A program made the position numbers and the translations under genes. The notes beneath the pieces were generated by a model. That model was not told where the DNA came from, searched no databases, and saw only the letters and a program-made list of their open reading frames with translations. Below, piece by piece: positions 3,701 through 10,166 of a DNA stretch of 44,050 nucleotides (its first letter is position 1; each line of letters starts with the position of its first letter). Origin of the DNA: Vulcanimicrobiales bacterium (GTDB lineage Bacteria; Vulcanimicrobiota; Vulcanimicrobiia; Vulcanimicrobiales; Vulcanimicrobiaceae); the NCBI GenBank assembly GCA_038215615.1, contig JBBQQR010000019.1, forward strand, positions 1-44,050. Direction: 5' to 3'.

Positions 3701-4101
3701 TGAAACGTACCGGCCGCACTGCGCGAGGTCATTTTTGCGATCGTTCGTAACGATTTCGTTAGGACCGCACTGACGGAAGTTGTCACGTCCGCGAAAACAT
3801 TTTGGCCCGGGACGAAAGCTTCGTCGTAACCCACGATGTGAAACGAAACGACGTACGTATCGGGTAGCACTCCTATGATCGAATAGAAGCCCTTGTCGTT
3901 TGTGGTCGCGGAGTAACGGCCGGTTGGCGCTACGACTGCTACGCGAACATTCGCGATCGGTGCACGCGTTACTGAATCCGTTACGATCCCGCTTAAGATC
4001 CCCGATGTTCCAGCGAACGCAGACCCATACGTCTGAGCGAGGAGAACGCACAGGACGGAAAACGCGAGAAACAAACGAGAGGAACGCTGCTTTAAATGCA
4101 A
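709..4101 (-). CDS. TonB-dependent receptor-like outer membrane protein with N-terminal carboxypeptidase-regulatory-like domain
   Basis: 1130 aa; signal peptide; GILSGIVTDSVTRAPIANVRV domain; plug-like LPGG..PVIRGG..EGI; barrel strands (AGLRIDRVNY, ATWGRSV); C-terminal YYFYLTVKL. Confidence 0.85.
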   Translation of the reverse strand: MHLKQRSSRLFLAFSVLCVLLAQTYGSAFAGTSGILSGIVTDSVTRAPIANVRVAVVAPTGRYSATTNDKGFYSIIGVLPDTYVVSFHIVGYDEAFVPGQNVFADVTTSVSAVLTKSLRTIAKMTSRSAAGTFQPLQSIDTYSITDRQIQMIQGNALNLNESNLITSLPGGSLDKDGYPVIRGGREYEQNLEFEGIQYTDAFTTRFTNALAIPGLALQSAQLTPGQGNASQDNYGTGTFNLIAKRGTYPAFATLQGNIGGPAFRHGFNGEWGFALPNGHFSGYVSIANSDSASAYNSISFNCALLGTCFSQYYQSDREFVGNFIYKFGRDNNMQLQAFINLAQHTTDSGSVGAPGFNLCFKTCDPFFLRATLNIAGLSAPPLTAATCPSALQCVGYTTAPPPGSSPAAFAAYQNVLLMQSMLSLQRGQATANETLAQAGNHPPAMNSQPNNTMKLGYGWHLDRSTYLQAMLFHTDAVQYLNNAEAGGYQATGFNAFDIWAGGKRSGGRIDLTKQLSDKNLLKAGVMYQYLTPVYDQVDPSFGVFNLEFSPNFELPDFIPQASCPVEYGGPGSPVCGYIYSFPGVSSPQKITGSYESSQARRNDWAYYVDDTWSPNDKLIVEAGLRIDRVNYQIPTPAIDPATCTSLYLPTYQSDANGVLLTTPSTNPNTQTTYQNPATGAIVTTPNGVCPVATFPQFNGQTHRPLVVEPVLSASYRMGGNDSVRATWGRSVEFVNLSFVDFTADPGYFGGPNGAFFNIPGYGTNCGPLSDQACTNYAEQLYWDNAQLVAGTVPMMPVRPVVFTNADFSWEHRFTRGWMNGVQFKVTPWYRRAHDQIAIVTTIKSVGDVPLTDPITGAYLYNPPTTTNHGISLADGLELQFTKEQPYGLSGQVSFTYQNEFTSVIPGGFFEAQFPTIPTPSALLGNIYRVGFLSPFVASFDFSYQTHSGWRINPRIQWNVGYPISPGLIAAGFINGKPYNVPFTNASGVVASLGSFGADQYVDPMNPGSFFNPNIVATRGIPVTAAAGGKLSHPSSVTNLAIEYDASKNWTAGIDVYNVFGALYGGPVLNGSYQPVATGISGPLTGQNASGYAFPQYGNIGDLGQLRHGRDAYTDTPNRIRSYYFYLTVKL

Positions 4102-6309: not shown

Positions 6310-6508
6310 TAAAAAATGCGATCTCCGATTGCCACCGCGGGTGGCGACTTGGGGCCTTTGATCTCCTACAAGGGGCCGCCACAGCAGCTGCCCCAGCAAA
6401 GAGTACGGGTACCGCACAAACGCAGCGTAAAAACGGCGAAATAAACCCTCCGATGGACCTACGGTCTTTTGGTGTTTGCCCGCGCGTTTCTCTCTGCGTG
6501 ATGTTCCC

Positions 6509-6582
6509 GTATTCCATTACAGCCCGGTTGGCGTAATGCGTGCGATCTGACTGGCATCGAGTTCGGTGAACCATAAATTTCC
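6509..6582 (-). pseudogene. Isolated, frameshifted Vgb-type repeat remnant
   Basis: Minus strand reads GNLWFTELDASQIARITPTG, then AVMEY after a frameshift; the same repeat as in the neighbouring Vgb-like gene. Confidence 0.7.
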
Positions 6583-6624
6583 AGCTTGCTCTTGTGAGCT
6601 TTTCGCCCGGCACGGCCTGCGCAG

Positions 6625-6648
6625 AATTTCCCCTCAAATTTCCCCTCA
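6625..6648. repeat. Perfect 12-bp tandem repeat (AATTTCCCCTCA x2), att-arm-like
   Basis: Directly visible at 6625-6636 and 6637-6648. Confidence 0.8.
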
Positions 6649-6713
6649 GACCATCGGCTTCGGACCGTAACCAGCGGTTACCGGAACGGCAGCAGTCCTA
6701 AGTAGGCGAGGCG

Positions 6714-6732
6714 TGTGGCACCGTTGTGGCAC
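6714..6732. repeat. Direct repeat TGTGGCAC x2, 11-bp period, att-arm-like
   Basis: Copies at 6714-6721 and 6725-6732. Confidence 0.6.
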
Positions 6733-7184
6733 GAGCTGGCTGATACAGGACGGTAATGGCCGTGCCATGCCAAAACTTCCGTCTTGCCGAACCACGGTTC
6801 GCGCGGCGAGTGCACACCGTAGCCCATTCACGAGGCATAGGGAAGCCTGTTCCAGACGCCGTCCGGTAACTTCTTATGCATGCAATGAATGCGTATGCAT
6901 CGACTGCCACAAGAGAATGAAATCACGGCTCGTGGGCGCGCCGTGATTGCTGTTATGTCTCTTTGAACTATCGCAAAGACTTCATTTGCGATACTTCGGG
7001 CGTCATAGCGCGTATTTCCGACACCGGAATGTGGGTAAGGCGATTTTTCCTGGGAAAGGGTCCCCTCGCGGTGCCGGTTCCGAGTGCCCGGCGCGCTGAA
7101 GTTTTTGTCATCGCTCCTCCCGCGCTTCGTGTTCAGAATATTGAAGCGAAACGTCAAGCGTTGCCGCTCCGTCGCATCTCTGAG

Positions 7185-7290
7185 GCGGATGTTGTCGAGC
7201 CATTTCGAGCGGTACTGTTAGATCGGATCGGCCAGGCGCGAAGCTTATCGGAAGCGCAAGCGCGCGATCGCTGGCTGCCGCCTACAGGGA
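7185..7290 (+). pseudogene. Possible relic of a type I R-M specificity subunit (HsdS) C-terminus
   Basis: VVEPFRAVLLDRIGQARSLSEAQARDRWLP resembles the HsdS terminal helix (..P...I.....L...RDxLLPxL). The rest of ORF 6963-7364 is not recognisable. Confidence 0.3.
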
Positions 7291-7492
7291 TCTTCGCCCG
7301 CAACCTTCAGCGAGTGGCTTCAAGAGCGGGAAGAACGGCGGCAGCGGGTCCGTCCGACCGTTGATCGCTGCGAGGTGCTAGAGCAGAAGATTCACCAAGA
7401 CCGGCAAGAGCGGGCTGTGAGCGGCGAGTTCTTGCACGCAGAACGCGAGACGCAGGATATGGAAATCAGTCGCGACCGCTGAGATACGATGC

Positions 7493-8185
7493 TTACCAGC
7501 CTGCGGGCTTCTTTACGGTCTTGCCTTGGGCATCGATGAGGACGTCGGGGAACTGTGCCGCTGCCAGATGCTCTTCCCTGATGTCGCGCGAGAATTTAGC
7601 AACCTTGCGCAACGTAATGCTTTGCTTGGCTCGCGGTGCCGATCCGGGACGCCCGCTAATGCGTTGCTGACAATTAGTCGTGCTCTGCGAATGCGGGTTG
7701 AAGACGCCAACCGGAATGTTGAACTCTTTGTTGATGATTCGCACGGGCTCAGCGAGATCGGAGTCGTTCGTAACGACGATGAGCTGGTCGCAATCGTTGC
7801 GGAAAGCATCGACAAGCATGTGCGTTGCGATGTTGACATCGGAGCCTTTCTCTTCCATCTTTACGACCTGAACTATAGAGGGGCCGCCAACGGGCGGGTT
7901 GGCAAGCCGCATGCGCGGCTTGCTTTCTAAGAAATGGCCATAGTGAACGGTAAGGCTCGGGATCGTTTCGAGCGCGCGAATGAAGAACTGCTGCCGGCTC
8001 GCCACATGGGGGTCGGCGGGCGTCGATTTTACGAGCGCTGTAAAATACCGAATCCGGTTGATGCTAAGGCCCGGGAGCACTCCTAGGCAGAGCTTCGCAA
8101 CGTCGAGCCACTTGTACGGCGTGCCCTTGACGGCACCATAGTATAGATTGAAACCGTCGACGTAGACGTTGGTGCGAATGCCCAT
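7493..8185 (-). CDS. NYN-domain (PIN/LabA-like) ribonuclease
   Basis: Motifs VYVDGFNLYYG, IRYFTA, EEKGSDVNIA, VVTNDSDL, C-terminal KPAGW; acidic catalytic residues intact; AGGAGA SD next to the ATG. Confidence 0.9.
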   Translation of the reverse strand: MGIRTNVYVDGFNLYYGAVKGTPYKWLDVAKLCLGVLPGLSINRIRYFTALVKSTPADPHVASRQQFFIRALETIPSLTVHYGHFLESKPRMRLANPPVGGPSIVQVVKMEEKGSDVNIATHMLVDAFRNDCDQLIVVTNDSDLAEPVRIINKEFNIPVGVFNPHSQSTTNCQQRISGRPGSAPRAKQSITLRKVAKFSRDIREEHLAAAQFPDVLIDAQGKTVKKPAGW

Positions 8186-8191
8186 TCTCCT

Positions 8192-8255
8192 GGAAAAAGC
8201 AAAGCCGCCTTACGGCGGCTCGCACCCTCGCTCCGAAGATTGAGGGGGGATGGCT
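8192..8255 (-). ncRNA. Putative structured leader/small RNA upstream of the NYN gene (UUCG hairpin, GUAA hairpin, U-tract)
   Basis: Minus strand: CCCUC-AA-UC(UUCG)GA-GC-GAGGG, then GAGCCGCC(GUAA)GGCGGCUU-UGCUUUUU, then SD and AUG. Confidence 0.55.
8193..8221 (-). terminator. Intrinsic terminator between promoter and NYN ORF
   Basis: 8-bp GC-rich stem (8202-8221) with GUAA loop, followed by UGCUUUUU. Confidence 0.65.
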
Positions 8256-8257
8256 AC

Positions 8258-8266
8258 ATCATAGCA
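8258..8266 (-). promoter_or_regulatory. Extended -10 promoter (TGcTATGAT)
   Basis: TGn plus TATGAT a few nt upstream of the first hairpin. Confidence 0.5.
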
Positions 8267-8292
8267 CTCCCGTCAAGATTATTCGACTGGTC

Positions 8293-8363
8293 CATCCGCC
8301 CCGCAAATGCGCTTGGCCTCCGGACGACCAATCTGCGATGGTCGCGCATTCGCGGGGCGGATG
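8293..8363. repeat. 20-bp-arm inverted repeat
   Basis: CATCCGCCCCGCAAATGCGC (8293-8312) and GCGCATTCGCGGGGCGGATG (8344-8363); one mismatch, which is a G-U pair on the minus strand. Confidence 0.8.
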
Positions 8364-8566
8364 CGAGTCCCCTTTATTCTGCGAATTCCCCCAGATAGCG
8401 TCTAAGAGCCCTAATTTAATCGGCAGACACCCTGGCCGTCGATCTTTCCGAGCAACGAAGTCTCTTTGCGCCGGGCGCTTGGCAAGGGTGGTAGTCTGGA
8501 ATGCTTGGCCGGCCAGCCCTTGCCGAGGCGGGCTGACTATCTTCCCTTGAGGAACAAGCGAGCCAG

Positions 8567-8797
8567 ATGAGTCGTCTTGAAGACTTGAAAGAGAATGCCG
8601 CCGTCAGTGGGATTTCACCCAGTGGTCTCGTCACAGTGGTCGGCACGAAGTGGCACGGGTCCGCGGCTCTAGAGCTGACATACAAAAGCGCGGAGGGCAA
8701 GCTCGCCAACGAGCTGCTCTATCGCGACGACGAGCCTCGCTTTGAAGTGGTTGAAGAAGGGCGCCCATGGGGCATTGGCTTTAACCTTGCACTCTAG
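8567..8797 (+). pseudogene. N-terminal fragment of an SNF2-type helicase of DUF499/DUF1156-associated restriction-like defence operons
   Basis: RLEDL..NAAV.GI.P..LVTVV...WHGS.ALELTYK...GKLANELLYRDDEPRFEVVEEGRPW matches the recalled N-terminus of these large helicases; similarity stops at GRPW. GAGGA SD present. Confidence 0.65.
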
Positions 8798-8908
8798 GCG
8801 AACTCGACGCTCCTCGGTGTTCCAACATACGCGCATCCTCCGAGTCAGCAAGGCAAAAATAGCGCAAGGGCCAGGACTGCTGGCAGCTAGTGTCCCGGCC
8901 CATTTTGC

Positions 8909-9058
8909 TGGTCACCTTTTGGTCACTTCTTCGGCGGTTGGCGGCGAAAGTCGGCGGACGTTAGTGGAAAGTCAATTCGCCACAGAAGCCCCTCTTGTAT
9001 AGGTTTCGCGCATGTCAGCGGACGTCAGCGGTCATCAGCGTTTTATTCGTGAGACGCA
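8909..9058. mobile_element. att-like flank of an integrative element (phased short direct repeats)
   Basis: TGGTCAC x2 (8909, 8920); 10-bp-periodic CGGCG units (8932-8960); GTCAGCG/ATCAGCG x3 (9014, 9024, 9034); abuts the broken tRNA. Confidence 0.6.
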
Positions 9059-9097
9059 TTTCAAGACCGCTGCATTCAACCGCTCTGCCACCTCTCC
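9059..9097 (-). tRNA. tRNA-Ser(UGA) 5' half only (truncated after the anticodon loop)
   Basis: GGAGAGG TG GCAGAGCGGTTGAATGC A GCGGT CTTGAAA = acceptor 5' strand, D arm, anticodon 5' strand and loop. The expected ACCGC, variable arm and T arm are absent. Confidence 0.85.
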
Positions 9098-9221
9098 ACC
9101 GGCATGCTTTGGGCCGCGCGGAGGGCGCCCCTTTCGCGTAGGTTAAACTCGGCGCATGAGTTGGCACAAGACGTTACGCGCTGGAATGCGTCGGCCCGTC
9201 GAGGGTGGAGCGGCTAAAACG

Positions 9222-9416
9222 TTAACGTTGCGCGGGCGGCTCGCTAGCTGAAAACGACTCCGCCATCGATTTGTCGGGAACACACTCGACGAGCGCAAGC
9301 GCCCAACCACCATCCGTGCGCAGGCGCGCCAAATACCCTCGCTCGGTTCTTCCATAGACGTGATATCCGGCGTTCAACGCTTCCCGCAGCGACGTGAAAA
9401 CGACAAGACCGCTCAT
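9222..9416 (-). CDS. Small hypothetical protein (64 aa)
   Basis: GGGAG SD 6 nt before ATG 9416; compact sequence MSGLVVFTSLREALNAGYHVYGRTERGYLARLRTDGGWALALV. Confidence 0.65.
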   Translation of the reverse strand: MSGLVVFTSLREALNAGYHVYGRTERGYLARLRTDGGWALALVECVPDKSMAESFSASEPPAQR

Positions 9417-9536
9417 GCAATACTCCCAGTAGGACGGGCCTTCGTTTAAGCGGCGCGAGCTTGTGAGTCCCTGTTGAGAGCGGGGATAAGCATTAAGAAG
9501 TTGTGCATAAGCCGTGTACAACCGCCGATGGGGCGG

Positions 9537-10166
9537 CTAGTGGCGAACCGCGTCCACGATAACGATGCCGCGCGAGTTGCGCTGCTCGAATTCACCCAGC
9601 GCCGCAAGCGTCGCGCCGATGGGGCTCGCCGGCTGCATGGCATCCGAAAGCGTAATGCCGATGCGCCGCTTCACTTCCTGATCGATCGGACCCCGCATAA
9701 AATCAGGCAGCGAACGGTACTTCGCGATCATGCCGAGCACCGAACCGAACTGCCGGTCGACGATCTGCGGATCCATCACGATCACAAGCGTCCCGTGCGT
9801 TCCCTTTCCGGCGCCACGCTCGAAAGCGGCGTAATCGAAACCGTACTCATGCGTCGCGCCCGGCCCGTGCGAGCCGAAATGATGCACCCACGCGGCGAGT
9901 TTGGAAAACGGCGCATCGCTGGCCGCGACGACTTCTTGCCCGTCGTACGTCCCGGCTCCGTCGGCAAAGACGGTACCGCGCGTCTGCTCGCCCGTCACGA
10001 CTTGCCGGAAAGATCGCACCGAGATCACTTCGGCTTGCGGATAGAGCGCGACGTTGAGCGGATTGCGTAGAACCGCAGACGGCGTCGGAGTCGGGGCCGG
10101 CGTCTGCCCTCCGCTGCACGCGGCCAACGCGAGCACGGGGAGGACGTAAAGAAGAATTCTGCGCAT
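9537..10166 (-). CDS. Hypothetical lipoprotein
   Basis: MRRILLYVLPVLALAAC lipobox, Pro/Thr linker, 209 aa. Confidence 0.8.
   Translation of the reverse strand: MRRILLYVLPVLALAACSGGQTPAPTPTPSAVLRNPLNVALYPQAEVISVRSFRQVVTGEQTRGTVFADGAGTYDGQEVVAASDAPFSKLAAWVHHFGSHGPGATHEYGFDYAAFERGAGKGTHGTLVIVMDPQIVDRQFGSVLGMIAKYRSLPDFMRGPIDQEVKRRIGITLSDAMQPASPIGATLAALGEFEQRNSRGIVIVDAVRH

Follow-up and report, generated by a model that had tools for sequence, protein, structure and literature searches.

A conserved 62-nt structured RNA accompanies HEC-09-family NYN nuclease genes in a candidate type III-like RNA-antitoxin module

The window analysed here is the whole stretch of 44,050 nt from a Vulcanimicrobiales bacterium (assembly GCA_038215615.1, contig JBBQQR010000019.1), and it carries on its minus strand a gene for a small structured RNA directly followed by an intact NYN nuclease gene. 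The RNA belongs to a real conserved family that is apparently undescribed, and the pairing of this family with NYN nucleases is most likely a variant of RNA-antitoxin system. With a probability of roughly 60%, we read the pair as a two-part module in which the RNA binds and inhibits a likely toxic NYN ribonuclease in trans, in the manner of a type III-like toxin-antitoxin system. Support for this reading comes from the RNA fold, its tight linkage to the nuclease gene, three gene layouts with promoter motifs and the lack of a conserved protein partner. The features of the module and its surroundings are listed below in window coordinates.

9059..9097, minus strand: copy of the first 39 nt of tRNA-Ser(UGA), 39/39 identical to the tRNA at C34:7129-7217
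8567..8797, plus strand: HmaA SNF2 helicase relic, a 76-aa N-terminal fragment divergent from the module (PADLOC HmaA E 6.8e-17, profile 1-70 of 1176)
8271..8276, minus strand: TTGACG hexamer, 7 nt upstream of the -10 box (sequence)
8258..8266, minus strand: extended -10 promoter (TGn-TATGAT), predicted to serve the RNA and, through read-through, the nuclease gene too (sequence)
8192..8253, minus strand: 62-nt gene for a small structured RNA, with a full-length match to covariance model R1 at 58.7 bits
8247..8251, minus strand: conserved unpaired 5′ segment AUCCC, a predicted protein-contact element (column conservation; present in all three layouts)
8225..8246, minus strand: hairpin P1 with c(UUCG)g cap and 9-bp consensus (9/9 pairs compensatory), a unit tandemly repeated in some homologous loci
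8199..8223, minus strand: hairpin P2, terminator-like, with a variable loop and, at the conserved foot of the stem, a one-nucleotide 3′ bulge (alignment and fold)
8194..8198, minus strand: U-tract (U5) of the predicted intrinsic terminator (sequence)
8186..8191, minus strand: Shine-Dalgarno-like AGGAGA, 2 nt after U5 (sequence)
7493..8185, minus strand: intact gene for a 230-aa NYN (PIN-like) nuclease of the HEC-09 family, ATG at 8185 (ORF and profiles)

A sequence-only reading of this DNA had described an extended -10, UUCG- and GUAA-capped hairpins, a U-tract, a Shine-Dalgarno sequence and an intact NYN gene, all of which were recovered on the minus strand; the leader end that it placed 1–3 nt before the Shine-Dalgarno sequence lies there, with 2 nt between U5 and AGGAGA. 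The window copy of P1 consists of 5 bp, a 2x2 internal loop and 2 bp, and its P2 has a GUAA-capped 8-bp core (8221-8202) within 10 bp formed over one bulge (8223-8199). The 63-nt leader folds with a z-score of -2.82, a value equalled by 1 of 200 shuffles, and other cut-outs of the leader gave -1.6 to -2.3; such single-sequence folding is modest evidence, and it is the homologues that carry the case for the RNA. No promoters were returned by a sigma-70 scan of positions 6500-9000 because the TTGACG hexamer (8276-8271) is just 7 nt from the -10 box. The TGn-TAnnnT motif is also present in three homologous loci (L208, L209 and L210). We also noted that in the window clade (L081, L208, L209, L210, L213 and L221) a TTGAC hexamer stands 7–8 nt from the -10 box, a spacing about one helical turn shorter than is usual in the remaining family, and that the -10 box of the window module is additionally covered by an inverted repeat.

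To follow the RNA across homologues we used 195 loci from 80 genomes, 80 metagenome contigs and 35 viral contigs, these being the best 80 of 589 genome and the best 80 of 583 metagenome confirmed candidates and all 35 viral ones. The covariance model R1 was built from a 61-sequence seed to which the window RNA belongs. In the seed 92.6% of cells were paired, compared with 74.3% after shuffling and 36–51% in slid controls, and compensatory changes were found at 18 of 20 pairs; the alignment of the second half had 96% of cells paired, a value biased towards structure by model fitting. Corrected mutual information over 175 distinct sequences ranked nested stem pairs in all of the top 11 places and revealed no crossing helix among the top 30 pairs, so that a pseudoknot fold was rejected in favour of nested stems only. 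In sequence, the 5′ residues that remain unpaired are conserved, as are the UUCG loop, the linker and the bulged base in P2, and mid-stem positions of P1 and P2 covary freely. RNA-guided action was also rejected, since the RNA is without a variable unpaired segment. The conserved, covarying structure on which the sequence-only reading had staked its case therefore exists, in 184 of the 195 loci, and the comparison with Rfam that it called for gave no relevant match with Rfam 15, whether in window positions 6400-9600 (E up to 10) or, at gathering scores, in 16 homologous loci. A mir-233 match at 8294-8362 was dismissed, as it scored 27.5 bits against a cut-off of 67 and its sequence is an inverted repeat. 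Distances between RNAs correlated with those between proteins (Spearman 0.45, 176 loci), a correlation that kinship alone would produce and that we did not count as co-evolution; among relocated copies, the nearest RNA clearly tracked the protein clade for L087 only.

The window protein has NYN as its sole Pfam match (E 4.5e-8) and matches the PADLOC profile of HEC-09 (PDLC04163) at E 1.3e-38, and all six further homologues tested match PDLC04163 over nearly the whole profile (E 6e-47 to 5e-25). A sequence search against solved structures gave no match for the window protein. The fold was assigned with Foldseek, and the top matches of the AlphaFold model (mean pLDDT 94) were the NYN domains of VPA0982 (2qip) and MARF1; an ESM Atlas search returned NYN clusters only. 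All predicted active-site acids (D10, E111, E112, D116, D141 and D143) are present in the window protein, and among 188 distinct homologues (196 rows minus 3 short or broken and 5 duplicates) D10 occurs in 182, D141 in 187 and E111, E112, D116 and D143 in every one. Judged by its family, the window protein is likely an active metal-dependent RNase. The family is large, with 7,823 of the 8,000 candidates scored reaching E 1e-10 or better, and its members are annotated merely as 'NYN domain-containing' or as HspA hydroxylase. Two distant homologues (L203 1995-2972 and L248 1399-2421) carry a C-terminal Xre/MbcA/ParS antitoxin-like fusion and retain a hairpin-terminator leader. ATG, GTG or TTG is missing at the expected start of 12 of 101 upstream-sense genes (e.g. 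L001-L003, L013 and L210); several of these starts are ATT or ATC, which may hold translation low.

According to R1 the RNA adjoins the gene in 184 of the 195 loci (60 in the seed and 124 outside it); among loci that have 200 nt on either side and an identity of 43% or more, it does so in all 159. Six of the 11 misses are truncated on one side at a contig end, L184, L185, L187 and L189 have a variant two-hairpin leader that scores 9–15 bits, and three misses are distant proteins (28–32%). Sampling by taxon of 151 genomes of the window's phylum gave six close homologues, all with the RNA directly upstream, and two distant ones (35%) with a hairpin-terminator leader to which R1 responded weakly or not at all; six RNA matches (26.8–52 bits) were without a NYN gene, and four weak R1 matches resemble chance terminators. 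Within this genome itself, the window RNA is the one strong R1 match. In 151 genomes of a second phylum, that of L013, the RNA was found at 31 of 33 NYN loci (28 from the first search and 3 with filters off), both misses belonging to a more distant subfamily. At least 46 RNA matches were recorded there, the RNA counts in both phylum samples being lower bounds from 34 scored candidates per genome; for 15 of the 46 the search threshold yielded no NYN match, and one of the 11 NYN-less RNAs inspected had a clear pseudogene. The 12 stretches picked out of viral contigs by a DNA-pattern scan comprised 3 full RNA matches, 2 contigs with partial or weak ones and 7 chance hits, and of the full matches one adjoins a NYN gene cut by the contig end and two have no NYN gene. 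Phyla with the family include Acidobacteriota, Chloroflexota, Actinomycetota, Planctomycetota and Gemmatimonadota, among others. No intact close homologue with full flanks was seen to lack the RNA in the 195 loci and the two phylum samples. L314 and L319, which belong to a NYN subfamily that is further removed and carries a CxxC insert, gave no R1 match and have upstream an apparent divergent promoter and structured sequence, perhaps a related RNA.

The position of the RNA relative to the nuclease gene is free. It lies upstream in the sense orientation in 110 of the 184 loci, upstream and divergent in 21 and downstream and convergent in 53, and there is a single downstream-sense locus (L303). 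A TTG-16-18-TAnnnT motif immediately precedes the RNA in 46/108 upstream-sense, 16/21 divergent and 12/46 convergent distinct copies, against a background of 44 in 11,700 random positions; TAnnnT stands at exactly -10 in 29/46 of the convergent class, and across the family TAnnnT boxes are most frequent near -10 and TTG boxes near -35 relative to the RNA. At paired columns, G-U cells outnumber A-C cells in every class (upstream-sense 158/18, divergent 38/14 and convergent 73/6), which indicates that the same strand is functional in all layouts, and the 5′ AUCCC segment is likewise kept in all three. A U-tract (at least 5 T in 8 nt) follows 74/106 upstream-sense copies and is weak in divergent (6/20) and convergent (9/48) ones. 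On a FastTree protein tree the layout changed at least 7 times, with the convergent L087 nested in the window's own clade (support 99) and L157 a separate divergent case. Layouts in which the RNA is divergent or downstream and has promoter motifs to itself strengthen the argument for a discrete, trans-acting RNA beyond what the earlier note could see, and the 74 detached loci, together with the lack of an antisense signal described below, would point to action in trans on one constant partner, the protein. In L086 and L087 (2992-3813) the module is inserted into a cell-wall gene cluster, ahead of mraY, and its RNA is encoded on the opposite strand, an orientation that would avoid termination of the operon.

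The 3,117 ORFs that lie up to 1.5 kb from the 195 genes include no conserved neighbour protein, the largest cluster reaching 12 of 135 NYN groups, and 100 flanking genes were heterogeneous; a conserved protein antitoxin was rejected on these two results. The neighbours are housekeeping genes, relaxases, integrases and defence genes (Mrr, BrxL and Swt1-HEPN), and many loci lie between housekeeping genes, outside defence islands. Homologues are present on 452 plasmid records, and the one on prophiGD43A-1 is placed between integrase and repressor, in the immunity region, with a convergent RNA predicted at 3897-3967 on the minus strand. Small-plasmid homologues include those of NZ_CP075745 and CP057929. 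Plasmid homologues that are less closely related still have a promoter-hairpin-terminator leader, but one of different sequence. Four hairpin copies precede the terminator on the E. coli plasmid CP057929, which is the layout by which type III loci are defined; for L200, tandem hairpin copies before the terminator were recorded, and two RNA copies are present in L037, L179, L199 and others. On small E. coli and Klebsiella plasmids (L200 210-326, L199, L205 and L249) the NYN gene is nearly the sole cargo and is preceded by repeated hairpin units and a terminator. A further contig (G154:C1:23575-31111, with L255, L257 and L259) holds three promoter-RNA copies about 3.7 kb apart, one followed by a full NYN gene and two by truncated starts.

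Intact RNAs were found beside a broken or missing nuclease gene in seven loci (L211, with a stop at codon 6, L215, L216, L255, L256, L257 and L260) and beside a broken one in 8 loci of the second phylum, so that such broken genes are common. This asymmetry, in which the RNA survives the nuclease, fits a toxin-antitoxin pair and would fit a cofactor equally; it is also inflated, because a 62-nt RNA is a small mutational target that would to some extent be expected to outlast a broken gene whatever the model, and because metagenome frameshifts may be assembly errors. Stand-alone RNAs nearly identical to that of the window and without a NYN gene were noted in L212, L213, L217 and L221, those of L212, L213 and L221 being divergent from AbiEi/AbiEii loci and that of L213 lying beside a helicase/relaxase-like gene. 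Such stand-alone copies are possible decoys or relics.

Under the RNA-antitoxin reading, the one promoter of the window layout would yield mostly short terminated RNA and, by read-through, little nuclease mRNA, leaving the RNA in excess over the nuclease; in the divergent and convergent layouts the two would be transcribed separately and the RNA would reach its target by diffusion. Predicted contacts of the nuclease are the AUCCC left unpaired at the 5′ end, the UUCG hairpin and the bulged P2 base. If the element were lost, or if a phage shut off transcription, the RNA would be depleted and the nuclease set free, which would then cut cellular RNA and bring about addiction and possibly abortive infection. 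Several observations count against this reading. The one HEC-09 representative assayed gave no protection against the tested phages in E. coli, and the main text of that study mentions toxicity for HEC-03 and HEC-04 only (bioRxiv 10.1101/2024.01.29.577857); the construct was induced with IPTG and included about 150 bp of upstream sequence where possible (bioRxiv 10.1101/2024.01.29.577857), and may for that reason have carried the RNA and its terminator. U-tracts are weak in the detached classes, the window RNA is a single unit and the alignment gives no pseudoknot signal, unlike ToxIN, many loci are among housekeeping genes rather than in defence islands, and a Bacteroides CRISPR-associated NYN protein is described, in the portion of the source available, as an RNA-trimming enzyme and not a toxin.

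If the RNA were a required cofactor or scaffold (a subunit for activation, specificity or sensing) and not chiefly an inhibitor, with the protein inert by itself, obligate linkage, free layout and the pattern of loss would be predicted just as well. The lactococcal AbiV RNA offers a parallel, as the available text reports it to be needed for phage resistance besides inhibiting the RNase, with a protein harmless to normal growth (bioRxiv 10.1101/2024.05.05.592566), and HEC-09 is without noted toxicity in the main text of its description (bioRxiv 10.1101/2024.01.29.577857). We nevertheless regard a cofactor role as unlikely: a terminator stands between promoter and gene in 110 loci and would produce the RNA excess typical of an antitoxin, the extra tandem copies (L200, L037 and L179) suit titration, and the RNA has no long variable unpaired stretch usable as a guide. 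Slightly less probable still is a feedback device, in which the RNA would be a preferred substrate or sponge that buffers a non-toxic RNA-processing enzyme and, when upstream, an attenuating leader. In the commonest layout the terminator-like P2 and the U-tract do lie immediately before the start, the read-through transcript can refold across part of the ribosome-binding site, and certain NYN proteins are, as far as the available sources describe them, processing enzymes; but a cis leader cannot act from the divergent or convergent position (74 loci, of several origins), and patchy presence, plasmids, a prophage and many pseudogenes are unlike a housekeeping enzyme.

Two further explanations appear very improbable. 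The conserved unpaired end is C-rich and could make the RNA an antisense, type I-like repressor that either base-pairs at the ribosome-binding site of the mRNA for the nuclease or overlaps the 3′ end of this mRNA; in 9/10 loci of the convergent layout, the RNA terminus and the stop codon lie no more than 20 nt apart. However, over 70 pairs the duplex energies of the 5′ 12 nt were -7.0 kcal/mol for cognate, -7.1 for non-cognate and -8.0 for shuffled partners, and those of the whole RNA were -40.3, -39.6 and -40.6 kcal/mol, respectively, so that pairing to the start region was rejected, cognate duplexes being no better than controls. The C-rich end is moreover kept in the convergent class, where an SD-like motif precedes 3/47 genes and 18 look leaderless, and the 3′ overlap is possible in that class only. 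Stand-alone copies, which are present on mobile elements and chromosomes, would fit an element that acts as DNA, as an operator or a recombination or mobility site, or that is a generic promoter-terminator cassette travelling with the gene, but the strand-specific G-U pairs, the UUCG loops, the compensatory changes in both stems and the fixed distance to a same-strand promoter all argue for a functional RNA.

RNA-antitoxin systems named in the literature available to us involve ToxN-type RNases, HEPN RNases (AbiF and AbiV) and a deaminase (AvcID). The closest in layout is C. difficile AbiF with RCd22 (RF03085), for which a promoter, one or more units of a short hairpin RNA, a terminator and an RNase gene are described, on prophages and plasmids, with an RNA active in cis and in trans that provides a precedent for a hairpin RNA antitoxin (available text of bioRxiv 10.1101/2025.04.15.648962). 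AbiF is however a HEPN (Abi_2) RNase, whereas the window protein has an NYN/PIN-like fold with acidic metal-binding residues; the window RNA matches neither RF03085 nor any other Rfam family, and the NYN-linked RNA also occurs divergent or downstream with its own promoter motifs. AbiV with its abiV2 RNA is a second hairpin precedent, classed as type III-like, in which an upstream RNA without repeats has a small hairpin that is bound; it differs in that the RNase is HEPN and metal-independent and the RNA, of 296 nt, is also needed for defence (as given in the available text of bioRxiv 10.1101/2024.05.05.592566). ToxIN (with AbiQ), CptIN and TenpIN share with the NYN module a single toxin gene after an RNA and a Rho-independent terminator (PMC12283969, in the portion available) and the lack of a protein antitoxin, which was found for the NYN module as well. 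The type III-like layout proposed from the sequence thus holds for the window and 110 loci, in which a shared promoter and terminator precede the gene, and does not extend to the other 74 of 184, which are not co-transcribed with the RNA. Of the type III-like system, the covarying RNA and the lack of a protein antitoxin stood, and three hallmarks were not found: the window has a single antitoxin unit, repeat arrays being confined to a minority of the family (L200), the NYN-linked RNA gives no pseudoknot signal, and the window protein is NYN by Pfam and Foldseek rather than of ToxN-type fold. Judged by these comparisons the module is not a member of ToxIN or AbiF; it may be likened to AbiF, AbiV and ToxIN, and is set apart from them by fold, RNA family, pseudoknot and repeats.

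The protein itself is not new, as by profile it belongs to the same family as HEC-09 (Hma-embedded candidate 9; bioRxiv 10.1101/2024.01.29.577857; PDLC04163). The embedding between hma genes for which HEC-09 is named is seen in L059, between hmaA and hmaB, while the window copy stands beside and divergent from an hmaA fragment and not within an operon. HEC-09 was published as a single gene, 'ncRNA' and 'non-coding' being absent from the main text, and its representative has an N-terminal helix-turn-helix-like region that the window protein lacks (bioRxiv 10.1101/2024.01.29.577857). The pairing of an RNA with a NYN nuclease had not been known to the sequence-only reading as established, and we likewise found no NYN-RNA pair in the literature, where supplements and subscription journals could hold the motif. 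'NYN' is absent from PMC13092281 and 10.1101/2025.01.08.631966, the main text of 10.64898/2026.10.21.760802 is without 'antitoxin' and its listing without 'NYN', and five NYN rows in the table of PMC8040213 concern LabA_C/OST-HTH or YacP types, or distant neighbours, with no NYN-RNA pair among them.

If the RNA-antitoxin reading is correct, a PIN/NYN toxin held by RNA would be a further toxin fold among RNA-antitoxin systems, PIN-like superfamily toxins being otherwise paired with proteins. VapC toxins are paired with protein antitoxins. The NYN module resembles VapBC and other type II systems in its PIN-like superfamily nuclease as the likely toxin (available text of PMC5499597), and differs in having no conserved protein partner and a protein of the NYN group. 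A testable role would be provided for a large family, and the RNA partner would offer a reason for the apparent inactivity of HEC-09. Testing would be cheap, given a very short RNA with good covariation and homologues on 3–5 kb E. coli plasmids, and the occurrence of single units, tandem arrays and a detached gene in one family could serve as a model for the evolution of RNA-controlled nucleases. More tentatively, it is conceivable, although we would sooner doubt it than accept it, that a cross-phylum RNA-antitoxin family has formed on the PIN/NYN nuclease, with a free-standing 62-nt antitoxin gene open to relocation, inversion and amplification into arrays, and that the stand-alone copies on mobile elements (beside AbiE loci and on viral contigs) are decoys that disarm a host NYN toxin.

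The 39-nt tRNA-Ser(UGA) duplicate likely marks the attachment-site end of an island, and the module, which this island would carry, lies about 800 bp inside the putative end. The gene had been described as intact among defence-gene relics; it is intact, and one such relic was identified, the 76-aa HmaA fragment, but ORFs 6963-7364 and 6828-7157 had no match in Pfam, PADLOC or NCBIfam. Between the module promoter and the hmaA fragment there is an inverted repeat with 20-bp arms (8293-8363). A 49-nt segment of the window (6621-6669) shares 84% identity with C30:16177-16224 of the same genome and is a possible further island junction.
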